From IMG/VR virus record IMGVR_UViG_2526164600_000002: a stretch of 50,850 bases of DNA. One strand, given 5' to 3'. The translations under genes were made by a program, and so were the position numbers. Below the pieces are notes generated by a model that was not told the origin of the DNA, made no database searches, and worked only from the letters and a program-made list of their open reading frames with translations. This document shows positions 4,567-49,212 of this stretch, piece by piece (position 1 is the stretch's first letter; each line of letters begins with the position of its first letter). The DNA is from a virus. Its lineage: Duplodnaviria > Heunggongvirae > Uroviricota > Caudoviricetes.

Positions 4567-5142
4567 CTACGGCAGTGCTGGCCATTCAATATCCTGTGAA
4601 GTTGACGTATCAACACGGTTCAGCAATACCCGATACTTTTTCCATGCTTCCAGCAACGAGATTTCTTCCTCCGTTGCAATTTCCAGATCTGCAGCATCCT
4701 GAAGCGGCGCAATATGCTCACTGGCTACCTGCATCAGGTTGTTTTTTATTTCTTCCGCCTCCCGGATCCGGAACAGTTTTTCTGCTTCCGTATCCTTCAC
4801 CCAGGCTGTGCCGTTCCACTTCTGAAACTCTCCTTCCGGCGATAACCAGGTAACATTTTCCGGTAACGGACCGAGTTCAGAAATAAATAACGCGTCGCCG
4901 GAAGCCACGTCATAAACCGTTTTACCCCGATGATCTTCAACGAGATGCCACGATGACTCATCACTGTTGAAAACAGCCACGAAGCCTGCCGGAATATCTG
5001 GCGGTGCAATATCGGTACTGTTTGCTGGCAGACCTGTATGAGGCGGAATATATGCATCACCTTCACCAATAAATTCATTAGTTCCGGCCAGCAGATTATA
5101 AATTTTTATGGTCCGTGGTTGTTCACTCATTCTGAATGCCAT
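4567..5142 (-). CDS. tfa: Tail fibre assembly protein (Tfa)
   Basis: ORF track 191 aa; follows stf with overlapping stop/start; lambda-like Tfa family. Confidence 0.85.
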
Positions 5143-8100
5143 TATGCAAGCCTCACAATATAGTTAAATGCGATGTTTTTGACGGTGTTTTCCGCGTTAC
5201 CAGCAGCGTTAACGGTGATGGTGTGTCCATGTGAACCAATCGCAACGGAGTGCGTATGAGCACCAATACCGACAGTATGCGCGTGTGCACCTGCAGATGC
5301 TGCTGTGCCGGACAGTGAGTGGCTATGATTACCATCTGTACTGGTATTAGCTAACCACCCCGTAGACATACCTACTGAGCCTTGTACACCCCAGGTATTT
5401 TGACCTGAGCTTGTATAACCATATTGATAAGTATCTTTAAAAACACTGGGGTTAAATCGACGGCCATCTCTATGGCTGTGATTACCAGCTGCATTCGTGC
5501 TGCCACTTAAACTATGGGTATGCGCACCAGTGTTATTCGTGGATTTAGTGCCGTAATCAAACGACGATGTGGTTTTCGTCCCCAAATCCGTACTGGATGC
5601 GCTGGCGCTGTGGGTATGCGATTTAATGCCGTCCTGTTCCTGAGACAATACGGCCCGACCACTGGCAGGTTTGCCCTTAATCGTCCAGCCACGCATATCA
5701 GGGATCACGCCTGACGGATAAGCCGCTGCAAGTTTCGGGTATGCAGATTTGTCAAAAGCCTGCCCCTGCATCAGGGCATAACCAGACGGAACGGTATCTG
5801 ATGGCCACGGGATTGGTGCGCCGACTGGGTAGCTTTCTGGTGGAAGATTTTTCGAGGTATAAACTTCTGCCCAGTCTTCCTCAAAACCATAGCCATCTCT
5901 TGAGGAACGGTAGAACAGACCTCCATTTCTGTAATGTGCCTTCATCTGCAAGGTCCGGCAACTTCCGACTCCGGTATAGAAGTTAACCAGAATATAGGTG
6001 TCGCCAGAGCGGGTGACATTGTAAGCGCCTGATTCGGCATTCCAGGGAACGCCACCATCCGCATCGGCATATGTATCCGTTGCCCTTCTGGCAAAAGCAG
6101 CCACATGCGCGGCGGTTAAAGTAATATCTTTGGAACCATCAAACTCAACACCAGAAACCCGTCTTGGCGTTTGCAGCTTTGTTGCTGTTAATGCATTACC
6201 GTTCAGACTTGCGGACAGTTTGGTTCCAATAACCAGTTCGCCGGTTGCGTTATCAATAGAAAACGGTCTTAATGTATTCCAGCCACCATAAACATCACCT
6301 TGATTGGTAAGCAGCAGGTGAGTTTTAGCGCCATCATTACGCCATAATGCACCATACTCCCCACCTATCATTCGAATCTGATTACCACCACGCGCTACAA
6401 TTTCGTCTGTGGCAAAAAGTTTTTTGCACGACAAGTTATCGTTAACGATTAACGAATTAGACTCATAAAAACCACGCCCACTCTTAAAATCAAGGATAAC
6501 GTCCGCCGCGATACATTCAGTCGCCGGATTTGTTGCCCCAAACTTATAGGTCGTATCATTAACAACGAGATCAGCACCAGGTGCGGATATTGACAGGCCA
6601 TCTTCGATAAACGCAAAAACAGGGAAAGCTGCGCCATCAACATAGAACACAGAGCGCAAATCATCGCCCTTATTACTCATCATTATTGAGTGGATGGCTC
6701 GTTCATTGTTTTGATATTGCCAGAACATTCCATAAGCATAACGCCCCCTGTCAGTCCAGCCGCCAGGCATAACAAATCCGTTAAACTCGCAGTTATTCAT
6801 CGGATCGCCTGCGGTTCGCGTTGCCGTGGTGATAATGACCCTTGATGCCAGTTCGCTTACTGAGCCAGCAGAACGCATAACAACAACAGGGTAATATTTT
6901 CCAGATGTTGCACCTGCAGGAGCGTTAACCCGCACATAACGCATACCACGCTTATCAGCAAAGTCTGTTTTACTGACCGCGTTAATGTTGTTCAGGAAGC
7001 GTCCCTTATCGGGTATATCAGCGCCGTTCTGGTCTTTCTGCAGACGTTTCTCTGCATTGTCATAGGCTGATTTTACTGCCTTTGGCGTTGCCGCCAGCGT
7101 TTCAGACGTACTGTTGGTCGCACTGCTTAGCTGAACTATCCCTTTCTGTGCTGTCGTTGCATCCTGTGCGGTGTATTTCCCGTTAGCCAGGTCATACGCG
7201 GCCTTAACGGCTTTTGGTGTTGCCGCCAGTGACTCGGAAGTGCTGTTAGTCGCACTACTGAGCTGTACTATCCCCTTTTTCGTCGTGCTCGCATCCTCAA
7301 GCGCCACGGCGGATGCAATATCCTCTGCCCGTTTTGCCGCTGTCTCAGCGCGCGTTGCTGCAGATTCCGCCGTACTTTTGCTCTGAGCTGCTGCCGTCGC
7401 ACTGCCAGCAGCCTCTGTCGCCTTCGTGGATGCCGTCGTGGCGCTGCCCTTCGCTGCTGACGCCTGTCTGGTCGCCTCATCTTTTGAAGCAGACGCCGAT
7501 GATGCCGATGACGCCGCCGAACTGGCGGACGATGCCGCTGCCGTTTTTGAGGATTCTGCACGGGTTTCCGACGCTTTTGCGTTCGTTTCGGATGTCTTCG
7601 CTGCGGAAGCAGACCTCGCTGCTGCCGTGGCCTGCTCAGTGGCTTCGCCAGCCTTCGTTGTGGCTGTTGAAGCAGACGATGCGGCACTTTCTGCCGACTT
7701 TCCGGCAGCGGTGGCACTGGCTGAGGCCTGCCCGGCACTTGTTGACGCGGCGCTGGCAGATGATGCAGCCGCTGTTTTTGAGCCTGCCGCAGCCGAGGCG
7801 CTCTGTCCCGCTGCCGTTTCAGAAGACCTGGCGTTCGTCTCGGACGTTTTTGCCGCCTTCGCGGAATTTCCTGCCGCCGTTGCCGAGGAAGCGGCACTAC
7901 TGGCGCTCGATGATGCGTTCGTTTCTGATGATTTTGCCGCCTCTTTTGAAGCCGACGCATCCCGTGCTGAAGTGGCTGCTTCTGACGCTTTCGTGGTCGC
8001 GGTGGATGCAGAAGTGGCTGCTGATTGTTGTGACGCTGCCGCATTCGTTTCTGACGTTTTCGCCGCACCGGCACTGGTAGCCGCCGCGCTTTTTGAGGAC

Positions 8101-8678
8101 TCTGCAGCGGCAGCACTTTTTAATGCTTCAGTGGCCTTTGTTGATGCCGTTCCTGCGCTGGAAGACGCTGACTGAGCCGACGAAGCAGCCTGTCCGGCTG
8201 ACGTGCTGGCTGCGCGTGCTGAGCCTGCAGCATCAGTCGCATGGGTTGCCGCCTCACGGGCTGATGTGCTGGCATCGCTGGCTGACTTCTTCGCGGCCGC
8301 CGTGTTCTGTGCCACCGCGGACGCGTTACGCGCCACCTCTTCCACCATCAGTTCAAAACGGCGCAGTGCCTCAGGACGGGCATCATCCTCCGTCATGGCA
8401 CCGAGAAAATCATTCAGCGTACCGGGTCGGGAATCTTCATACACGGTGATGGTCCCGGCATGTGACGGCGGGAATCCTTCCACCAACAGAATAACGCTGT
8501 ACTGACCGTACTCAACGTCCATGCTGTAACGCCCGGCTTCATCCGGATTTTCTGAGGCCAGCGTGTTCACCACCACAGTGGTACTGTTACGTTTTGCTTT
8601 CAGCTGGATTGTGCAGTTCTGTACCGGTTTTCCTGTGCCGTCTTTCAGTACACCTGAAATCTTTACTGCCATATTCAC
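5142..8678 (-). CDS. stf: Side tail fibre protein (Stf), 1178 aa, with long Ala/Ser/Thr-rich low-complexity region, tandem tail-fibre repeats and C-terminal His-x-His repeats
   Basis: ORF track; N-terminus [17 protein letters not shown] typical of lambda/Rac Stf; repeated [14 protein letters not shown] motif; HTHS/HSHS/HAHT repeats at C-terminus. Confidence 0.85.
7065..7290. repeat. Two imperfect ~100-bp direct repeats inside stf, encoding the duplicated tail-fibre repeat motif; followed (7300-8300) by GC-rich Ala/Ser/Thr codon low-complexity DNA
   Basis: Repeat units read at about 7069-7160 and 7191-7290; ORF track shows open frames on both strands across 7268-8505, typical of repetitive triplet DNA. 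Confidence 0.6.
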
Positions 8679-27665: not shown

Positions 27666-27691
<26 letters not shown>

Positions 27692-28211
27692 TCAGCAACC
27701 CCGGTATCAGTTCATCCAGCGCGGCTGCTTTGTTCATGGCTTTGATGATATCCCGTTTCAGGAAATCAACATGTCGGTTTTCCAGTTCCGGAAAACGCCG
27801 CTGCACCGACAGGGGGATCCCGTCGAGAATACTGGCAATTTCACCTGCGATCCGCGACAGCACGAAAGTACAGAATGCGGTTTCCACCACTTCAGCGGAG
27901 TCTCTGGCATTTTTCAGCTCCTGTGCGTCGGCCTGCGCACGCGTAAGTCGATGGCGTTCGTACTCAATAGTCCCTGGCTGGAGATCTGTCTCGCTGGCCT
28001 GCCGCAGTTCTTCAACTTCCCGGCGCAGCTTTTCGTTCTCAATTTCAGCATCCCTTTCGGCATACCATCTTATAACGGCGGCAGAGTCATAAAGCACCTC
28101 ATTACCCTTGCCACCGCCTCGCAGAACGGGCATTCCCTGTTCCTGCCAGTTCTGAATGGTACGGATACTCGCACCGAAAATGTCAGCCAGCTGCTTTTTG
28201 TTGACTTCCAT
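27666..28211 (-). CDS. nu1: Terminase small subunit Nu1
   Basis: ORF track 181 aa; N-terminus MEVNKKQLADIFGASIRTIQNWQEQGMP as lambda Nu1. Confidence 0.9.
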
Positions 28212-28388: not shown

Positions 28389-28400
28389 AGGTCGCCGCCC
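28389..28400 (-). other. cosN cohesive-end site (12-nt GGGCGGCGACCT on minus strand); cosB lies between it and Nu1, cosQ on the other side
   Basis: Plus strand AGGTCGCCGCCC at 28389-28400; flanking sequence matches my recollection of lambda left and right ends. Confidence 0.85.
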
Positions 28401-28599
28401 CGTAACCTGTCGGATCGCCGGAAAGGACCCGCAAAATGATAATAATTATCATCTGCATGTCACAACGTGCATCTACGCCATCAAACCACGTCAAATAATC
28501 AATTATGACGCAGATATCGTATTAATTGATCTGCATCAACTTAACGTAAAAACAACTTCAGACAATACAAATCAGCGACACTGAATACGGGACAACCTC

Positions 28600-28833
28600 A
28601 TGTCAACGAAGAACAGAACCCGCAGAACAACAACCCGCAACATCCGCTTTCCTAACCAAATGATTGAACAAATTAACATCGCTCTTGAGCAAAAAGGGTC
28701 CGGGAATTTCTCAGCCTGGGTCATTGAAGCCTGCCGCCGGAGACTGTGCTCAGAAAAAAGAGTTTCTTCTGAAGCAAACAAAGAAAAGAGTGACATTACT
28801 GAATTGCTCAGAAAACAGGTCAGACCAGATTGA
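28600..28833 (+). CDS. Hypothetical small protein, possible ribbon-helix-helix DNA-binding fold
   Basis: ORF track 77 aa; basic N-terminus then NIRFPNQMIEQINIALEQKGSGNFSAWVIEACRRRL resembling RHH (Arc/CopG-like) proteins. Confidence 0.4.
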   Translation: MSTKNRTRRTTTRNIRFPNQMIEQINIALEQKGSGNFSAWVIEACRRRLCSEKRVSSEANKEKSDITELLRKQVRPD

Positions 28834-28875
28834 AGCAATTTAGATAATCGTGCAGACTACGCCCCCTCATATCAC

Positions 28876-29301
28876 ATGGAAGGTTTATCTATGGATCAGG
28901 TAGTCATTTTTAAACAAATATTTGATAAAGTTCGAAACGATTTAAACTATCAATGGTTTTATTCTGAGCTAAAACGTCACAATGTCTCACATTACATTTA
29001 CTATTTAGCCACAGAGAATGTTCATATTGTATTAAAAAATGATAATACAGTGTTATTAAAGGGCCTAAAAAACATTGTGTCTGTCAAATTTTCAAAGGAT
29101 AGGCATCTTATAGAAACGACCTCTAATAAGCTGAAATCCAGAGAGATCACATTTCAGGAATACAGAAGAAACCTTGCTAAAGCAGGAGTTTTTCGGTGGG
29201 TTACAAATATCCACGAACAAAAAAGATATTACTATACCTTTGATAATTCATTACTATTTACTGAAAGCATCCAGAAAACTACACAGATCTTACCACGCTA
29301 A
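28876..29301 (+). CDS. ydfO: YdfO-like protein (DUF1398 family)
   Basis: ORF track 141 aa; position after the packaging genes as in K-12 Qin; family assignment from recollection. Confidence 0.55.
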
Positions 29302-29452
29302 ACCATAACGTCCGGCTTCTCTCACTCCTGAGCCGGACTGCATTGGTTTAATAAAAACCATCAACAATTGTGATTTAGATATTCGGAACCATTCAAATAT
29401 AACAAAACCCCGTAAAAACGAGGTTTATGGATAAATTTTATTATTGAATACA

Positions 29453-29628
29453 TCAGATTAAATTAATCTTGACATCATAGCTTTCAAGACCCGTCATTTT
29501 TTCCCGTGCGGTAAACTGAATACTGGTAACTTCTTTCCCGGTCTTTTTCTTAAGTTCAATAATTTTTTTGTTATATATTCAGAAATATCTGCTTCTGCTT
29601 TTGTTTTTAAGTTTTCAATATTCATCAT
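29453..29628 (-). pseudogene. gnsB: Gns-family small protein (GnsB-like) with apparent 1-bp frameshift in an A7 run
   Basis: Manual translation: N-terminal frame MMNIENLKTKAEADISEYITKK, then second frame IIELKKKTGKEVTSIQFTAREKMTGLESYDVKINLI; junction at T7 run 29563-29569. Confidence 0.55.
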
Positions 29629-29796
29629 TTCCTCTTTTAGTCTGTTATGACTTTCCAGTTACACAGTAAGTCGATTATATGGTGCAAACGTGTAAAAGAT
29701 AAGATGAAACATCGCAATAATCAACATACGATAGTCTAAATTTTACACAAACAGACAAAGAGAATTTTCCTGAATTATCAATGCAATAGCATCAAA

Positions 29797-30069
29797 TCAA
29801 CTCAAGAGCCTTATTGCTGCTTCCAGAATTTCTTCTGAAGTAACATGTCGATCCGCGGCTACATAAATGACTTTATGATCTCCGGTCAGAGATGGAAACC
29901 CTGCGGCCATTACAGTAAGGTGTGTTTTTTCGCCATTTGGATATTCACGCATGATGGTGTTAACTCCAGTCATCGCTGGCACTACCACTGCTGGTTCAGA
30001 GTTAAAAAAAACTATGATTTTTTTCATGATGTTACCGTAGTATGTGAGTATCCATCGAATAGACACCAA
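29797..30069 (-). CDS. Hypothetical protein (position of ynfN in Qin; a 51-aa version would start at MREYPNGEK, about 29797..29952)
   Basis: ORF track 90 aa; no recognisable motif; start uncertain. Confidence 0.35.
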   Translation of the reverse strand: MVSIRWILTYYGNIMKKIIVFFNSEPAVVVPAMTGVNTIMREYPNGEKTHLTVMAAGFPSLTGDHKVIYVAADRHVTSEEILEAAIRLLS

Positions 30070-30298
30070 GCCAAAAAGCTCCCGAAGGAGCCTTCATTTT
30101 CACTTTTTTAAATCCAACGACAGACGGCTGGCATTTAAGTATTGTGAAATATTATCAAATGTAATCATCATTGATTTACAAAAGATACATTTTGCCCCGA
30201 AAGGATTCATGTCAGAAACATCAAAAGATGATGTTCTATACTGGGAACCATGACAACACGGGCATCTAAAGTGAATATGGTTTGTAATATTGTCTACC

Positions 30299-30511
30299 TC
30301 AAAGCGCCACTACATGAACAGCGGCAGGACCTTTAGGTCCGTTCTCAATACCAAATTCAACTTCCTGATTCTCAGTTAATGTTTTGAAATCGTTGCTCTG
30401 AATTGCTGAGAAATGGACAAACACATCTTTGCTGCCATCTTTCGGCGTGATGAAACCAAAACCTTTTTCAGGGTTAAACCATTTCACTAAACCAGTCATT
30501 TTGTTAGACAT
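30299..30511 (-). CDS. cspI: Cold shock protein CspI (CspA family, 70 aa)
   Basis: ORF track; [27 protein letters not shown] cold-shock domain; long AT-rich 5' leader upstream. Confidence 0.9.
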
Positions 30512-30873
30512 AATTATTACCTTTTGAAGAAATTAGCCCTTGGGCAGAATGGTCCGAAAAAAAATATCAGAGAGAAAAACCAACAAGGAAATCTCAAGAG
30601 GTACAAATAATAAAATTATAACAATGACTGCTTCAGATAAATTTGTAACAAACCAGAACACCATTAACGCATGATTAACCACCCATAGCAAGGATTACTT
30701 TTGTAAAGAAAAACACAGCAATGAAAGAATAGCTTTATTTATTAATAAAACGTGTCATTCTGATTAAGACCTTTTATCTTACCCTTAAGATTTCAGGAAT
30801 TTTGGCTCATGGAAGAGTCCTTTTTATTTAAATTTTACATTCCGCGATGTAAATGTTCCGATTTAATATTACC

Positions 30874-32818: not shown

Positions 32819-33180
32819 TTGATTTTATTAGTAACAAGTATTTTTATATTTTAATAATATATTTAAAGCAGATAATAAAAAACCCGCCTGAGCGGGTTTG
32901 AGATTGTGGTGCTTTTTGTGGGAGTCATCCACTTACGCACTTTGTTTTGCGATGCCAGCAGTTAGCTTCTGCTGTGAAACTATTCATGCAGCAAACCTGC
33001 ACTTCACCACAATGGTTAGCATACTTTTCCTGATTAAGATTTTGCCAAATATGCTGGCCATTGTTTCATGTATTGGACCTCCTTACTTTTTATTAAAGAG
33101 ATCCAATATTCACTACTCTGTCCGTATCTCTACTCAGGCATCAGCCTTCTTCGTTATCGTATACAGACGAGCGATGAATT

Positions 33181-33396
33181 TTAATCAGTAATGATGACAT
33201 TTACTGCTGCAGGACCTTTAGCACCACTCTCTATAGAGAAGGTAACCTTTTGACCTTCAAATAAGGTTCGATAATTATCATTCTGAATCGCAGAAAAATG
33301 CACAAACACATCTTTACTACCATCAACAGGAGAAATAAAGCCGAAACCTTTATCAGCGTTAAACCATTTTACTAAACCAGTCATTTTATTTGACAT
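33181..33396 (-). CDS. cspB: Cold shock protein CspB (71 aa)
   Basis: ORF track; CspA-family cold-shock domain. Confidence 0.9.
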
Positions 33397-33706
33397 TCTA
33401 CATTCCTTAACTTGAGCCTTTCGGCATAAATGGTTTGCATAACAGAAACGACTTCGTACTTAATTGGAGAGACTCAAAGAAGGAATAAGTGAATAACACC
33501 TGAAATGAGAACTGCTTTAGTAAACTACTTCGTATATCGTCTGTTCTTCAAACCGACGCAGTCATTAACTCATAGTTGAACATATGAAGCAATGTTTATT
33601 TTAGACATCCAGCCACCTTCAATCCTATCAAAAAAGTAGTTTTCTCCAGGAACGTGTGTATGGTGCACCAGGTTATCAGTATTAAGGAGTTTTTCTGTCC
33701 CCTAAA

Positions 33707-40354: not shown

Positions 40355-40729
40355 GAAAAATCCCCCAGAGAATTGTCTGGGGACATTTTAGAATGGTTCA
40401 AAGGGGACATTACAGCTTGGTGTTAACAATAGCCTGCTTCTCCGTGCCTTTCGGCACGTAAGAGGCTAACCTACATGTGTCTAGCATGAAATTGGCCTCA
40501 GATTAATGTTAAGCGTCTTGCAGGACGCGTAATGTTAACTGGGGCTTTTCTCTATCTGCCGTTGGTGTCCATGCCCGAGGCAGATAGCCTCAAGCACCCG
40601 CAGTCATTCTACTTAACTAAGATTTCCCCGCAAACCGTTTTTGTCCAGCACAGTAAATATCCAACTAAACCAATGGAGTTCGCTGTATTTACCGCCAGTA
40701 TTCAATGCACATGACCGCCATGAACACCC

Positions 40730-44594: not shown

Positions 44595-45002
44595 ATGGAT
44601 ACAAGAACCCTGGGCCAGCGAGTTCTGGCGCGACGAAAAGAATTACGCTTAACACAACGAGAAGCCGCGCGCCTCGCTGGAGTTGCTCACGTCACAATTT
44701 CACAATGGGAAAGAGACGAAACCCAGCCAGTCGGAAAACGATTGTTTGCTTTAGCGGATGCTCTGAAGTGCTCACCTACATGGCTAATGTTTGGTGACGA
44801 AGACAAGGCACCAGTGCCTGCACAAGAACTTCATGTGGAAACAGAGCTAACTCCCAACCACAAAGAATTGATCGAATTATTCGATGCTCTTCCATCTTCC
44901 GAGCAGGAAGCCTTGCTGTCTGAAATGCGCGCAAGAGTAGAAAACTTCAACAAACTCTTCGAAGAAATGCTTAAAGCGCGTAAAAATAAATCAATAAAAT
45001 AA
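44595..45002 (+). CDS. dicA: Repressor DicA (cI/C2-like HTH)
   Basis: ORF track 135 aa; HTH region LRLTQREAARLAGVAHVTISQWE. Confidence 0.9.
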   Translation: MDTRTLGQRVLARRKELRLTQREAARLAGVAHVTISQWERDETQPVGKRLFALADALKCSPTWLMFGDEDKAPVPAQELHVETELTPNHKELIELFDALPSSEQEALLSEMRARVENFNKLFEEMLKARKNKSIK

Positions 45003-45037
45003 CATTCTTTTCAAGTGATTAGTTGCGCCCACCCTTT

Positions 45038-45093
45038 TTGTTAGATCAATCTAACAAAAAACACTTGCCTCTCATGTTAGGTTATTCTAAATT
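45038..45093. promoter_or_regulatory. Two operator-like palindromes (TTGTTAGATCAATCTAACAA at 45038-45057; TGTTAGGTTATTCTAAAT at 45076-45093) upstream of ydfA; candidate DicA-repressed dicB-operon promoter
   Basis: Inverted repeats read directly; half-site TGTTAG shared with the dicC/dicA palindrome. Confidence 0.55.
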
Positions 45094-45170
45094 ATTTTCC
45101 ATCAAGACACCGCACGGTGTTCTCAGCAAACAGTTCCGCTACCCCGGCGTTAAGGGGAAATGAGGTCAGC

Positions 45171-45326
45171 ATGGATACTATCGATCTTGGCAACAGCGAA
45201 TCTCTGGTATGTGGCGTGTTCCCCAACCAGGACGGTACGTTCACCGCGATGACGTATACCAAAAGCAAAACGTTTAAAACCGAAAATGGTGCCCGTCGCT
45301 GGCTGGAAAGAAACCCAGGTGAGTGA
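45171..45326 (+). CDS. ydfA: YdfA (51 aa)
   Basis: ORF 45117..45326; start at MDTIDLG. Confidence 0.75.
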   Translation: MDTIDLGNSESLVCGVFPNQDGTFTAMTYTKSKTFKTENGARRWLERNPGE

Positions 45327-45327
45327 T

Positions 45328-45456
45328 ATGGATTTCGACACAATCATGGAAAAGGCTTACGAAGAATACTTCGAAGGTCTTGCCGACGGCGAAGAAGCTC
45401 TCAGCTTCAACGAATTTAAACAGGCGCTTTCCAGTTCGGCAAAATCTAACGGCTGA
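45328..45456 (+). CDS. ydfB: YdfB (42 aa)
   Basis: Manual translation MDFDTIMEKAYEEYFEGLADGEEALSFNEFKQALSSSAKSNG; below ORF-track cutoff. Confidence 0.7.
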   Translation: MDFDTIMEKAYEEYFEGLADGEEALSFNEFKQALSSSAKSNG

Positions 45457-45485
45457 TAAGCGAAACAGCACCGCGAGGAATCAGT

Positions 45486-45704
45486 ATGCAGAAACGAGAA
45501 CCCGTCATCATCGCGCCAGACTATACCGATGATGAACTTTATGAGTGGATGCGCCAGAAAATTAATGCAGCGCAGGATTTGAAATGGGCCAATGAAACCA
45601 GGGCTAAGCAGGCTGAAAATCTGTCCGCTCTGGAGCAGGATATCACCAATCTGGAAAAAGCAGCGGCATTAAGCATTGCCAGAATGATTACATACCCGCG
45701 TTAG
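45486..45704 (+). CDS. ydfC: YdfC (72 aa)
   Basis: ORF track. Confidence 0.8.
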   Translation: MQKREPVIIAPDYTDDELYEWMRQKINAAQDLKWANETRAKQAENLSALEQDITNLEKAAALSIARMITYPR

Positions 45705-46044
45705 TAGCTAATCAACAAAGCTAAGGTTAGTAATTAAGGAGTTCTCCACGGGTGAGGTGGAGTGCGTGCGCCGGACACGGGTGAGCATCCGGCACTGACA
45801 GTTTACTGAAAGGATATTTCCCTGAAAAGTCAGACCATAACGCGAAAGCGCACGGCGAGGTAGCTGGTTCATAGATAGCCTGTCGTTAAATTTTCGTCGA
45901 CCGTGCGCTTCCGGTTGTGGCAACCCGCGAAATGGCGCGGCGGTAAGTATGGCGGGGTTATTCCTTCCCCGTTGAGGACACCGGGTTGTCAGGTTGACCA
46001 TACGCTTAAGTGACAACCCCGCTGCAACGCCCTCTGTTATCAAT

Positions 46045-46102
46045 TTTCTGGTGACGTTTGGCGGTATCAGTTTTACTCCGTGACTGCTCTGCCGCCCTTT
46101 TT
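46045..46102 (+). ncRNA. dicF: DicF small regulatory RNA (ftsZ-targeting), ending in intrinsic terminator GCCGCCCTTTTT
   Basis: Sequence TTTCTGGTGACGTTTGGCGGTATCAGTTTTACTCCGTGACTGCTCTGCCGCCCTTTTT recognised; lies between ydfC and dicB. Confidence 0.85.
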
Positions 46103-46271
46103 AAAGTGAATTTTGTGATGTGGTGAATGCGGCTGAGCGCACGCGGAACAGTTAAAACCAAAAACAGTGTTATGGGTGGATTCTCTGTATCCGGCGTTAA
46201 TTGTTAACTGGTTAACGTCACCTGGAGGCACCAGGCACTGCATCACAAAATTCATTGTTGAGGACGCGATA

Positions 46272-46460
46272 ATGAAAACGTTATTACCAAACGTTAATAC
46301 GTCTGAAGGTTGTTTTGAAATTGGTGTCACTATCAGTAACCCAGTATTTACTGAAGATGCCATTAACAAGAGAAAACAAGAACGGGAGCTATTAAATAAA
46401 ATATGCATTGTTTCAATGCTGGCTCGTTTACGTCTGATGCCAAAAGGATGTGCACAATGA
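46272..46460 (+). CDS. dicB: Cell division inhibitor DicB (62 aa)
   Basis: ORF 46167..46460; start at MKTLLPNVNTSEG. Confidence 0.9.
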   Translation: MKTLLPNVNTSEGCFEIGVTISNPVFTEDAINKRKQERELLNKICIVSMLARLRLMPKGCAQ

Positions 46461-46648
46461 ATTCAGCATTTGTGCTTGTTCTGACAGTTTTTCTTGTTTC
46501 CGGAGAGCCAGTTGATATTGCAGTCAGTGTGCACAGGACAATGCAGGAGTGTATGACTGCAGCAACCGAACAGAAAATTCCCGGTAACTGTTACCCGGTC
46601 GATAAAGTTATTCACCAGGATAATATCGAAATCCCGGCAGGTCTTTAA
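46457..46648 (+). CDS. ydfD: YdfD (63 aa, N-terminal TM segment)
   Basis: ORF 46403..46648; start MNSAFVLVLTVFLVSG overlapping dicB stop (ATGA). Confidence 0.8.
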   Translation: MNSAFVLVLTVFLVSGEPVDIAVSVHRTMQECMTAATEQKIPGNCYPVDKVIHQDNIEIPAGL

Positions 46649-46704
46649 AACAGTTCCGTAATAAATATCCGGTTTCATTCTTATATGCCAGCAATGGCAG
46701 GGAT

Positions 46705-49212
46705 TTGTTCATCCTTAAATCTGTCATGAGGTTAAAACAAATGAGTAAAGTCTTTATTTGCGCCGCTATTCCTGACGAACTGGCAACAAGGGAAGAAGGC
46801 GCTGTGGCTGTAGCCACAGCCATTGAAGCTGGCGACGAACGCCGTGCTCGAGCAAAATTTCACTGGCAATTCCTGGAACATTATCCGGCTGCTCAGGACT
46901 GCGCTTATAAATTTATTGTCTGCGAGGATAAACCTGGCATACCCCGCCCTGCCCTCGATTCATGGGATGCTGAATATATGCAGGAAAACCGCTGGGATGA
47001 GGAGTCTGCTTCTTTTGTCCCGGTTGAGACTGAATCCGATCCGATGAACGTCACTTTTGACAAGCTGGCCCCTGAAGTACAGAACGCTGTCATGGTTAAG
47101 TTCGACACATGTGAAAACATCACCGTTGATATGGTTATTAGCGCACAGGAATTGTTGCAGGAAGACATGGCAACATTCGACGGACATATCGTTGAAGCGT
47201 TGATGAAAATGCCAGAAGTTAACGCCATGTATCCGGAGCTTAAGTTGCACGCCATTGGGTGGGTTAAGCATAAATGTATTCCTGGTGCTAAATGGCCCGA
47301 AATTCAGGCAGAGATGCGCATCTGGAAAAAACGTCGCGAAGGTGAACGCAAGGAAACCGGAAAATACACGTCTGTTGTTGATCTCGCCCGCGCCAGAGCC
47401 AATCAACAGTACACTGAAAATTCAACAGGAAAAATCAGCCCGGTCATTGCTGCCATTCATCGCGAATACAAGCAGACATGGAAAACACTGGATGACGAAC
47501 TGGCCTACGCTCTCTGGCCTGGTGATGTGGATGCCGGAAACATTGACGGCAGCATCCATCGCTGGGCAAAAAAAGAAGTTATCGACAACGACCGCGAAGA
47601 CTGGAAGCGTATCTCGGCATCAATGCGCAAACAGCCTGATGCCCTTCGCTACGACCGCCAAACTATTTTTGGCCTTGTCCGTGAGCGTCCGATCGACATT
47701 CACAAAGATCCCGTAGCACTGAACAAATATATCTGCGAATACCTGACGACAAAGGGCGTGTTTGAGAATGAAGAAACAGACCTGGGCACTGTTGATGTTC
47801 TCCAGTCATCAGAAACACAAACTGATGCAGTGGAAACTGAGGTATCTGATATCCCAAAAAATGAAACCGCGCCGGAAGCTGAACCATCTGTAGAGCGTGA
47901 GGGGCCGTTCTATTTCCTCTTCGCAGATAAGGACGGAGAAAAATACGGTCGCGCAAACAAACTCTCTGGTCTGGATAAGGCACTGGCTGCTGGCGCCACT
48001 GAAATCACAAAAGAAGAATATTTTGCCCGAAAAAATGGCACATACACGGGCTTACCGCAAAATGTAGATACCGCTGAAGATTCAGAACAACCAGAGCCGA
48101 TAAAAGTTACCGCTGACGAAGTAAACAAAATTATGCAGGCAGCCAATATCAGCCAGCCTGACGCCGATAAGTTGCTTGCTGCATCACGTGGTGAATTTGT
48201 TGAAGGGATTAGTGACCCGAATGATCCGAAATGGGTTAAGGGGCTCCAGACCCGCGATTCTGTGAACCAGAACCAGCATGAATCGGAACGGAACTACCAA
48301 AAAGCGGAACAAAACAGTCCAAATGCGTTACAAAACGAGCCAGAAACGAAACAGCCTGAACCAGTAGCGCAACAGGAAGTGGAAAAAGTCTGCACCGCCT
48401 GCGGTCAGACCGGCGGCGGCAACTGCCCTGATTGTGGCGCGGTGATGGGCGACGCAACATACCAAGAAACATTCGATGAAGAGTATCAGGTTGAAGTTCA
48501 GGAAGATGATCCGGAGGAAATGGAAGGCGCTGAACATCCACACAAGGAGAACACTGGCGGCAATCAGCATCACAATAGCGATAATGAAACTGGCGAGACG
48601 GCAGATCACCCAATTAAGGTGAACGGTCATCACGAAATCACATCCACCAGCAGGACGTGTGACCATCTAATGATCGACCTTGAAACCATGGGAAAAAATC
48701 CTGATGCCCCGATCATCTCAATAGGTGCAATATTTTTCGATCCGCAAACCGGAGATATGGGACCGGAATTTAGTAAGACTATCGATCTGGAAACTGCTGG
48801 CGGAGTCATTGATCGGGACACCATTAAATGGTGGCTTAAGCAATCACGCGAAGCGCAATCTGCCATTATGACCGATGAAATCCCGTTAGATGATGCACTG
48901 TTACAATTGCGAGAATTTATCGACGAAAACTCCGGTGAATTTTTTGTTCAGGTTTGGGGAAATGGAGCCAACTTCGACAACACGATTTTGCGCCGTTCAT
49001 ACGAACGGCAGGGGATCCCCTGCCCGTGGCGTTACTACAACGATCGCGATGTACGCACAATCGTTGAGCTGGGGAAAGCCATAGACTTCGATGCCAGAAC
49101 GGCTATTCCATTCGAAGGTGAGCGCCATAATGCACTTGATGACGCCCGTTACCAGGCAAAATACGTTTCAGTTATCTGGCAAAAACTGATCCCGAGTCAG
49201 GCTGATTCTTAA
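46705..49212 (+). CDS. ydfE: Large YdfE-like protein (835 aa) with central acidic region, CxxC...CxxC zinc ribbon and C-terminal DEDDh-type 3'-5' exonuclease domain
   Basis: ORF track; exonuclease motifs MIDLETMG (Exo I), VWGNGANFD (Exo II), HNALDDARY (Exo III with His); zinc ribbon CTACGQTGGGNCPDCG. Confidence 0.7.
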   Translation: MFILKSVMRLKQMSKVFICAAIPDELATREEGAVAVATAIEAGDERRARAKFHWQFLEHYPAAQDCAYKFIVCEDKPGIPRPALDSWDAEYMQENRWDEESASFVPVETESDPMNVTFDKLAPEVQNAVMVKFDTCENITVDMVISAQELLQEDMATFDGHIVEALMKMPEVNAMYPELKLHAIGWVKHKCIPGAKWPEIQAEMRIWKKRREGERKETGKYTSVVDLARARANQQYTENSTGKISPVIAAIHREYKQTWKTLDDELAYALWPGDVDAGNIDGSIHRWAKKEVIDNDREDWKRISASMRKQPDALRYDRQTIFGLVRERPIDIHKDPVALNKYICEYLTTKGVFENEETDLGTVDVLQSSETQTDAVETEVSDIPKNETAPEAEPSVEREGPFYFLFADKDGEKYGRANKLSGLDKALAAGATEITKEEYFARKNGTYTGLPQNVDTAEDSEQPEPIKVTADEVNKIMQAANISQPDADKLLAASRGEFVEGISDPNDPKWVKGLQTRDSVNQNQHESERNYQKAEQNSPNALQNEPETKQPEPVAQQEVEKVCTACGQTGGGNCPDCGAVMGDATYQETFDEEYQVEVQEDDPEEMEGAEHPHKENTGGNQHHNSDNETGETADHPIKVNGHHEITSTSRTCDHLMIDLETMGKNPDAPIISIGAIFFDPQTGDMGPEFSKTIDLETAGGVIDRDTIKWWLKQSREAQSAIMTDEIPLDDALLQLREFIDENSGEFFVQVWGNGANFDNTILRRSYERQGIPCPWRYYNDRDVRTIVELGKAIDFDARTAIPFEGERHNALDDARYQAKYVSVIWQKLIPSQADS

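Follow-up and report, generated by a model that had tools for sequence, protein, structure and literature searches.

The closest described relative of the region analysed here is the gene cluster ynfO-ydfO-gnsB-ynfN-ynfR-ynfQ-cspI in the cryptic prophage Qin of Escherichia coli K-12, whose genes, together with nohA, carry the numbers b1548-b1552, b4533, b4749 and b4724. Our subject is the counterpart of this cluster in IMG/VR virus record IMGVR_UViG_2526164600_000002, a stretch of Caudoviricetes DNA of 50,850 nucleotides (nt) that we call the window, where it lies between cos and cspI at positions 28401 to 30298. We were concerned above all with its first two genes, ynfO and ydfO, which an earlier reading of the letters alone (the sequence-only reading) had taken for a possible regulator/effector or toxin-antitoxin-like module. 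Genes, gene order and orientation are the same in the window and in K-12 Qin. Over 2310 nt the window is 99.35% identical to the Qin prophage of strain MG1655, with 13 mismatches and 2 gaps, and YnfO, YdfO, YnfQ and CspI are 100% identical to the K-12 proteins. Both gaps are homopolymer indels, and their effects are opposite: gnsB has a run of A7 here and A8 in K-12, and ynfN has T8 here and T7 in K-12, which leaves gnsB broken and ynfN full-length in the window and gnsB intact and ynfN short in K-12. A further difference is that stfQ directly follows nohA in K-12, whereas the window keeps the neighbouring Nu1, terminase and portal genes. Identical DNA in RefSeq E. coli genomes is annotated as nohA, ynfO, ydfO, gnsB, ynfN, ynfR, ynfQ/ymcF and cspI, and megablast with a 2087-nt query found part of it in 4835 of 5426 complete E. 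coli genomes and at least 80% of it in 1043 of them. Every gene of the cluster is already named in K-12, and the region as such is both known and common.

The second described relative is the right end of phage lambda, with bor, lambdap78 (a DUF1398 gene like ydfO), lambdap79, an open reading frame (ORF) resembling ylcI, and cos; the ybcV-ybcW-ylcI genes of prophage DLP12 correspond to it. As in the window, these genes are placed between cos and the lysis genes and are oriented against late transcription. Lambda differs in that its DUF3950 protein, the counterpart of YnfO, has a different tail of 15 residues, and in that bor stands where the prophage has the gnsB-ynfN-ynfR-ynfQ-cspI unit. The sequence-only reading is supported in placing the genes in a cos-proximal cargo hotspot of lambdoid prophages. 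The ORFs it had reported, of 77 and 141 amino acids (aa) on the plus strand and a Gns-like and a 76-aa one on the minus strand, are all present where it located them according to the ORF list, Pfam and RefSeq, and its statement that none of the genes has an established function in phage biology holds.

We interpret the region as accessory or "moron" DNA at the right, cos-proximal end of an E. coli lambdoid prophage of the Qin type, built of two convergent moron units: ynfO and ydfO, probably transcribed separately, face the cold-shock unit cspI-ynfQ-ynfR-ynfN-gnsB. We assign this reading as a whole a probability of roughly 0.6. Judged by sequence comparison, the adjacency of ynfO and ydfO appears to be a product of recombination and not a two-gene system, the genes belonging to two modules that have apparently been exchanged separately. 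The features on which this interpretation draws are the following.

28389-28400: cosN cohesive end AGGTCGCCGCCC (in lambda GGGCGGCGACCT, its reverse complement); left boundary of the region.
28424-28430: candidate cosQ heptamer AGGACCC (reverse complement of GGGTCCT), which maps to lambda 48473-48479 through a block of 95% identity.
28436-28452: near-perfect palindrome ATGATAAT-A-ATTATCAT between cosQ and ynfO, kept in lambda as ATGATAATCATTATCAC.
28498-28530: inverted repeat ATCAATTATGACG / CGTATTAATTGAT, 70-100 nt upstream of ynfO, found by repeat search and kept among loci of the lambda-cos type.
28600-28833, plus strand: ynfO (K-12 b4533), 77 aa, DUF3950 or YlcI-YnfO family (Pfam, NCBIfam, identity to K-12).
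28814-28830: PdhR-box-like palindrome AACAGGTCAGACCAGAT with a GGTnnnACC core, overlapping the last six ynfO codons and lying 61-77 nt upstream of the ydfO ATG.
28843-28848, plus strand: -10-like hexamer GATAAT, read from the sequence; possibly part of a promoter of ydfO itself.
28891-29301, plus strand: ydfO (K-12 b1549), DUF1398; 136 aa when counted from the start given by RefSeq, 141 aa in the longest ORF, which begins at 28876.
29310-29338, plus strand: GC-rich hairpin 9 nt past the ydfO stop; the fold of 29299-29352 has -21.7 kcal/mol and z = -6.0.

Aligned with lambda, the plus-strand DNA consists of two blocks. Positions 28401-28762, from cos through codon 54 of ynfO, correspond to lambda 48502-48141 at 95% identity. 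The homology to the lambda right end begins exactly at 28401 (lambda 48502), and the 12-nt cohesive end together with this flanking block, which matches the final 362 nt of lambda at 95% identity, identifies the site as a lambda-type cos; the heptamer at 28424-28430 we take to be the cosQ of lambda packaging. Positions 28817-29320, which hold ydfO and 74 nt upstream of it, correspond to lambda 47527-47023 at 84% identity. The 54 nt between the two blocks share nothing with lambda, which has 613 nt there, including the ybcW-like lambdap79 on the other strand. Since the 54-nt joint replaces these 613 nt, the adjacency of ynfO and ydfO is best explained as a recombination product. Both genes are present in lambda and DLP12 as well, about 530-610 nt apart and with the opposite-strand gene between them, and DLP12-type loci share the lambda arrangement.

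A degenerate DNA pattern scan of IMG/VR viral contigs yielded 118 DUF3950 genes, and it is to this sample that the counts of DUF3950 loci given here and below refer. Of 94 informative DUF3950 loci, 53 lacked DUF1398, all of these with at least 2.5 kb of downstream sequence. Where YnfO had a Qin-type tail, DUF1398 was adjacent in 33 of 34 loci; where the tail was of the lambda type, DUF1398 lay 532-533 nt away in eight loci and was missing in 11. Among GenBank phages, DUF3950 was found in 155 records and DUF1398 in 43, and none of 68 records of Shiga toxin (Stx)-converting phages contained DUF1398. One further locus, L210, has the order ydfO-gnsB-ynfN-cspI-Rz-lysozyme at 96% identity to the window and a different small terminase, and lacks DUF3950; its homology to the window starts at 28813. 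Conservation as a unit across genomes, as is usual for type II toxin-antitoxin pairs, was thus not observed for ynfO-ydfO. The last six codons of YnfO are encoded by control DNA of the ydfO module, and the tail therefore looks like a by-product of the joint. The tight association of the Qin-type tail with DUF1398 is what simple linkage predicts.

The joint itself holds a conserved protein-binding palindrome, the -10-like hexamer and a Shine-Dalgarno sequence. All three elements are kept upstream of both the Qin-type and the lambda-type DUF1398 gene, and the palindrome, a GGTCAGACC box, has a homologue at the same distance upstream of the DUF1398 gene of lambda and DLP12. The palindrome AACAGGTCAGACCAGAT is exactly the site given for the "ynfO > ydfO < gnsB" region in the in vitro table of a study of PdhR by genomic systematic evolution of ligands by exponential enrichment (gSELEX), which also lists a site between ybcV and ybcW and reports that the mRNA of ybcV, a ydfO paralogue, was 10-fold lower in a pdhR mutant (PMC7660256). 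For ydfO we prefer the start at 28891 as the most likely one, because it is the RefSeq start and its ATG is preceded by the Shine-Dalgarno sequence GGAAGG, the 141-aa form being simply the longest ORF. YdfO matched Pfam DUF1398 (PF07166) with E=1.7e-46 and 157.5 bits against a cut-off of 22, over profile positions 1-119 of 119, and in its 141-aa form it is identical at 140 of 141 residues to PDB entry 2HH8 "ydfO", a structure solved by nuclear magnetic resonance (NMR). The hairpin at 29310-29338 is likely a transcript end or a stabiliser between the two convergent units. As for expression, the ydfO transcript rose 12- to 117-fold under ionic liquid (PMC4077768), and the same article states, citing its reference 32, that overexpression of ydfO raises resistance to oxidative stress. 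The gene is also differentially expressed on induction of DicC. A "DUF1398 family protein" of Staphylococcus aureus is mentioned in PMC11206351.

YnfO matched Pfam DUF3950 (PF13132; E=2.7e-21, 75.6 bits, cut-off 25) and NCBIfam YlcI_YnfO_N (NF041551; 36.6 bits, cut-off 30). The family is small: a search of 1.84 billion proteins gave 120 representatives at E<=0.001. Its conserved core runs from a basic arm through K-x-I-R-F-P, a helix, a turn and N-F-S-A-W-V to a second helix. Codons 1-50 are under strong purifying selection, with a median ratio of nonsynonymous to synonymous substitution rates (dN/dS) of 0.06 over 895 pairs and only 4-7 residues differing at dS values up to saturation, which means that YnfO is a real, constrained protein. 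Residues 1-50 were nearly invariant among the sampled loci, and beyond residue 50 we found at least 10 unrelated tails of 4-48 residues; the sequences indicate that the C-terminal tail is swapped at mosaic junctions. A lambda-type cosN stood at a fixed distance upstream of the DUF3950 gene in 80 of 110 informative loci, the remainder being about 23 of an Stx/HNH type and 7 divergent copies. In a Stx2a phage a lone DUF3950 gene is divergent from the adjoining genes for an HNH protein and the small and large terminase subunits (TerS and TerL). Wherever we saw the gene in a phage, it was antisense to the late transcripts.

Outside phages proper, the three divergent copies that we inspected lie in satellite-like integrase-alpA-primase elements (L090, L100 and L172), on the opposite strand between alpA and primase. 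Each is preceded by repeated copies of a palindrome like TGTGCGCACA, the exact form of which is seen in L090 (about 8090-8340), and the copies look like an operator array. In the window, candidate operators of ynfO are the palindrome at 28436-28452 and the inverted repeat at 28498-28530; the latter might instead be a promoter element. Two proteins, P0310 (L006 4714-5103) and P0328, fuse DUF3950 to the N-terminal helix-turn-helix (HTH) of the Terminase_2 small subunit (E=1.6e-11), L006 being a 6.8-kb contig with integrase and primase and a satellite-like look. YlcI/YnfO genes are among those listed for capsid-forming phage-inducible chromosomal islands (PICIs; PMC13612085). A tblastn match of YnfO to Pasteurella phage Pmp7 (40% identity) runs antisense to an annotated repressor gene and was judged to be due to chance.

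The sequence-only reading had called the 77-aa protein ribbon-helix-helix (RHH)-like. Like the Arc, Mnt and CopG repressors, YnfO has a core of about 50 aa with a basic N-terminal arm, a short alternating strand motif (IRFP in YnfO) and then two helices joined by a turn; it differs from them in showing no significant match in sequence or structure, and DUF3950 is still classed in Pfam among the domains of unknown function. An AlphaFold monomer of YnfO, with a predicted local distance difference test score (pLDDT) of 72, has helices at residues 19-32 and 37-72 and does not model residues 14-18 as a strand. A Foldseek search of PDB with this model returned 23 matches, all with E>1, of which 21 are RHH or RHH-like as judged by their entry names (Arc, MazE-mt1, MazE9, NikR, VapB, MatP, 1Y9B and others). 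The DUF3950 profile reached CdbA and a CopG-family RHH protein in PDB at E of about 1; with a trimmed, more diverse profile of 54 columns these weak matches were lost and only spurious segments of prokaryotic Argonaute (pAgo) proteins appeared. By hhalign against Arc, Mnt, CopG, ParD, NikR and FitA, in a reference alignment made by hand, IRFP and helix A fell in register with Arc at P=0.097 and 0.023. A BFVD search with YnfO was uninformative. The profile searches thus gave an alignment in register with Arc and weak PDB matches, none of them significant, and the motif order, the modelled helices, the Foldseek list and the hhalign result make an RHH-type fold of residues ~1-50 plausible without statistical demonstration; we think it rather probable. 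Our preferred reading of YnfO, drawn from sequence, is that it is probably a small DNA-binding and likely self-regulating transcription factor of the packaging-end module.

These data are consistent with the following organisation. The first block would run from cos to the lysis genes, antisense to late transcription, as a mosaic of two modules. Module A would comprise cosN-cosQ, a conserved spacer of ~200 nt and the first 50-55 codons of ynfO; its small, basic protein, most likely an RHH dimer, would bind DNA, probably regulate itself and travel with the packaging end of the phage. Module B, predicted to be a self-contained moron, would comprise the GGTCAGACC palindrome (bound by PdhR in vitro), GATAAT, the Shine-Dalgarno sequence, ydfO and the hairpin, probably with a promoter of its own that PdhR and stress may influence, and YdfO would be a small cytoplasmic alpha/beta protein linked to stress tolerance. 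At the Qin joint, with 54 nt in place of the 613 nt of lambda, the YnfO frame would have gained a tail of 27 residues that stops inside the ydfO control region.

Several observations weigh against this interpretation. The association of tail and DUF1398 in 33 of 34 loci would be equally expected if the tail were co-adapted to YdfO, and the genes are separated by 42 nt, or by 57 nt if ydfO begins where RefSeq has it, with no terminator between them, so that co-transcription by read-through from ynfO is possible. A search of the plus strand for sigma-70 consensus promoters gave none for ynfO or ydfO; it passed over the GATAAT hexamer because its -35 element is poor. The PdhR site at ydfO agrees with the consensus at 10 of 14 positions; its gSELEX peak is of modest height, and the table groups it with the sites that do not precede genes transcribed divergently (PMC7660256). 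AlphaFold modelled YdfO, from 21 homologues of 69-97% identity, with a pLDDT of 48, too poor for a fold search, and neither the sequence-profile nor the structure methods used gave statistical significance to the RHH assignment of YnfO.

A competing explanation takes up the idea of the sequence-only reading and makes the two genes an operon, either regulator/effector or similar to type II toxin-antitoxin systems; YnfO would then be an RHH antitoxin or repressor, with a tail that binds YdfO and an N-terminus that represses the operon. The pair does share with toxin-antitoxin systems that have RHH antitoxins (ParD-ParE, RHH-type MazE) a small RHH-like gene directly upstream on the same strand, 42-57 nt ahead of a gene of ~136 aa across the terminator-free gap, and a conserved DNA-binding part joined to a variable C-terminal part. 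The inverted repeats upstream of ynfO and the near-constant company of Qin-type tail and DUF1398 also fit. It differs from such systems in that the ydfO partner is not conserved and appears to have its own control region, in that it matches no toxin family and in that it gives no sign of toxicity. The genes are apart in lambda and DLP12, DUF3950 stands without DUF1398 in the 53 of 94 loci and the 68 Stx-phage records, ydfO stands without DUF3950 in L210, and the tail ends in codons that belong to the conserved PdhR box upstream of ydfO, which makes the tail look accidental. PADLOC-DB searches with YnfO, YdfO, YnfN, YnfQ and the Gns fragment gave no defence family at E<=0.1, and a Pfam scan gave no toxin family for YnfO or YdfO and no enzymatic or effector domain. 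A toxic YdfO is not suggested either, because the protein was produced in quantity for NMR (2HH8) and overexpressed without reported toxicity, the reported phenotype being a beneficial one. We consider such a module unlikely. A physical link of another kind, a YnfO-YdfO fusion protein made by read-through of UGA, is suggested by the fact that ynfO and the 141-aa ydfO ORF share a frame, with TGA and 14 sense codons between them, and by a 233-aa database protein, P0122 (761 member sequences), that has W at that codon. P0122 comes from metagenome and Logan gene calls only, for which a gene caller with an alternative code or a TGG variant is the simplest explanation; moreover, in the module of the lambda type 16 nt separate the upstream ATG from the start of DUF1398, which puts them in different frames, and the internal ATG at 28891 has a Shine-Dalgarno sequence ahead of it. 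This idea has next to no probability in our estimate.

Other explanations concern what the genes do rather than whether they belong together. The N-terminal domain of YnfO could be a DNA-binding factor associated with cos or packaging, acting on terminase access, termination at cosQ or transcription across cos, and no regulator of cargo genes. Its fixed distance to cosN, its position beside HNH-TerS-TerL in Stx phages, its absence from L210 with the different TerS, the fusions to the TerS HTH in satellite-like contigs, the YlcI/YnfO genes of capsid-forming PICIs and the strong purifying selection would all agree with such a role. On the other side, a gene that in all phages seen runs antisense to the late transcripts is badly positioned to be expressed while DNA is packaged; in satellites it sits between alpA and primase, away from packaging genes, and the linkage to cos may merely reflect the block structure of recombination. 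Short cos fragments suffice for lambda packaging, which also counts against the idea, with the reservation that YlcI of a helper could still act in trans. We regard this role as improbable. Broader, and doubtful too, is the proposal that cos-type lambdoid phages and their satellites may have, in the ~50-residue DUF3950, a DNA-binding protein dedicated to the lysis/packaging boundary. It might then control packaging, transcription across cos or the competition between helper and satellite, the boundary at codon 50 would be a recurrent insertion point for cargo, and the Qin-type tail could be co-opted to contact YdfO. That the cluster is an anti-phage defence or superinfection-exclusion cassette would suit a known cargo hotspot with genes oriented against late transcription, like bor in lambda, and ydfO appears, as an entry in a list, among the genes lost in a phage-resistant mutant of avian pathogenic E. 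coli (PMC8711792). The five proteins searched had no PADLOC match, no enzymatic or effector domain was detected, and the same genes occur in phage lambda itself, so we hold a defence function to be very unlikely. The interpretation as two convergent units with separately acquired ynfO and ydfO is the one that we retain.

The second of these units, and the flanks of the region, contain the features listed here.

27666-28211, minus strand: lambda-type Nu1 gene, left of cos (ORF list).
29405-29426, minus strand: intrinsic-terminator-like hairpin with a T run, downstream of gnsB (terminator scan and fold).
29453-29625, minus strand: gnsB (K-12 b1550), frameshifted allele (translations and comparison with K-12).
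29797-30027, minus strand: ynfN (K-12 b1551), full 76-aa form (RefSeq annotation of identical DNA); phrog_3425, of unknown function.
30032-30097, minus strand: ynfR (K-12 b4749), 21 aa, translation MKAPSGAFWLGVYSMDTHILR, identical to K-12 YnfR at 20 of 21 residues.
30100-30288, minus strand: ynfQ (K-12 b4724), 62 aa, YmcF-like; start codon ATT, CxxC motif present twice; RefSeq name "cold shock small protein YmcF".
30272-30657, minus strand: cspA-type thermoregulator of the 5' untranslated region, and cspI (112.8 bits for Rfam RF01766, whose gathering score is 78).
30299-30511, minus strand: cspI (K-12 b1552), right boundary.

In this unit cspI with its cspA-type thermosensing leader would stand at the head, followed by YnfQ, YnfR, YnfN and a gnsB gene inactivated by a one-base homopolymer deletion. 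CspI matched Pfam CSD with E=1.6e-31, and together with the leader this places it in the CspA family with a thermoregulator. The Pfam assignments of the region's proteins are borne out by NCBIfam and PHROGs. The nearest described arrangement is the chromosomal cspG-ymcF-ymcE-gnsA of K-12, which likewise has a csp gene with a cspA-type leader, then a small zinc-ribbon-like protein of the YmcF type and a gene of the Gns family. It differs in having ymcE in the middle, in place of ynfR and ynfN here, and the cluster of the window is prophage-borne and its gnsB broken. YnfQ gave a weak match to the zinc-binding NCBIfam family NF047912, and the abundance of K-12 YnfR goes up strongly after cold shock (PMC6001520). 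The terminator-like hairpin after gnsB and the strong hairpin after ydfO make the two convergent units appear insulated from each other.

A Gns-family ORF is indeed present on the minus strand, as the sequence-only reading had it, in the form of a frameshifted gene of 43/44 aa. The shift comes after residue 21, where positions 29563-29569 form a T7 run, or A7 as the gene is read, so that the product keeps only the first 21 residues of GnsB, and Pfam GnsAB_toxin (PF08178) matched it at profile positions 1-32 of 54 only, short of an intact GnsB of ~57 aa. In related loci the tract is A8 in 61, A7 in 5 and A9 in 2, and the truncated form of 44 aa has a PHROG family of its own, phrog_32862. The A7 allele may be due to slippage or to a sequencing error. 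Overexpressed GnsB relieves the growth defect that a relA fadR strain shows at 25 C (bioRxiv 10.1101/2024.03.27.586906), and that preprint cites Sugai 2001 for an increase in unsaturated fatty acids by GnsA/GnsB. The "unknown ORF" of the sequence-only reading exists with its 76 aa and has a name already, ynfN; ynfR and ynfQ, which lie between it and cspI, are to be added. The T run of ynfN at 30004-30011 is T8, which gives 76 aa, and the T7 allele of K-12 is annotated with 51 aa; no Pfam, PDB or PADLOC match was found for the protein. On the plus strand, a 69-aa ORF at 30044-30253, which ends where the region outlined by the sequence-only reading ended, is antisense to ynfR and ynfQ, matched no family and is probably not a gene.

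Elsewhere in the window, Rfam found a second cspA thermoregulator at 33134-33557, whose neighbouring gene is annotated cspB in strain S51, and the small RNA DicF at 46046-46097; DicF and the csp genes fit a prophage of the Qin type. The same search found IS009 RNA at 4601-4799 and the antitoxin RNA sok at 40428-40599, the latter implying a locus of the hok/sok type.

The comparison also bears on the annotation of lambda. Its ylcI-like DUF3950 ORF at 48142-48303 on the minus strand is 98% identical to YnfO over residues 1-54 and is unannotated in J02459 and NC_001416. The DUF1398 gene lambdap78 (47042-47575) carries the RefSeq label "head protein", which is the name of PHROG 413, and older records call it a "putative envelope protein"; the label "head protein" is probably a misnomer and may derive from PHROG 413. 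Matches in other phyla seemed to indicate a broad host range of DUF1398, an idea that we rejected on finding that the eight contigs checked are contamination by lambda control DNA. These contigs, from unrelated species, are 99.8-100% identical to lambda ~45,000-48,500, and those of ~3.5 kb span 45,042-48,488, which is presumably the Oxford Nanopore lambda control amplicon. Among the contaminated examples (within L213-L243) are CP136411.1, "Arcanobacterium hippocoleae plasmid unnamed1" (L218; 3566 bp), and the Brevibacillus "plasmid pContig2" (L217). We suspect the same control DNA behind the error-laden ENA contigs of ~3.5 kb that inflate the DUF3950 and DUF1398 clusters, and presumably also behind the mentions of ynfO, ylcI or DUF1398 in papers on Arcanobacterium and on the fungus Metarhizium.

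As it was found, the cluster matters little, given that all of its genes are annotated in K-12, that the arrangement is common and that the structure of YdfO has been solved. What the analysis adds are grounds for not reading ynfO and ydfO as a pair: where they adjoin, recombination has apparently brought together a module linked to cos and a ydfO moron that is complete in itself. It also carries a warning, as much of the apparent diversity and host range of DUF3950 and DUF1398 in public databases appears to be lambda control DNA. Finally, it points to a small, strongly conserved gene that is unannotated in the reference lambda records examined; if DUF3950 were in fact a DNA-binding protein of the lysis/packaging boundary, lambda would carry an overlooked functional gene at 48142-48303.

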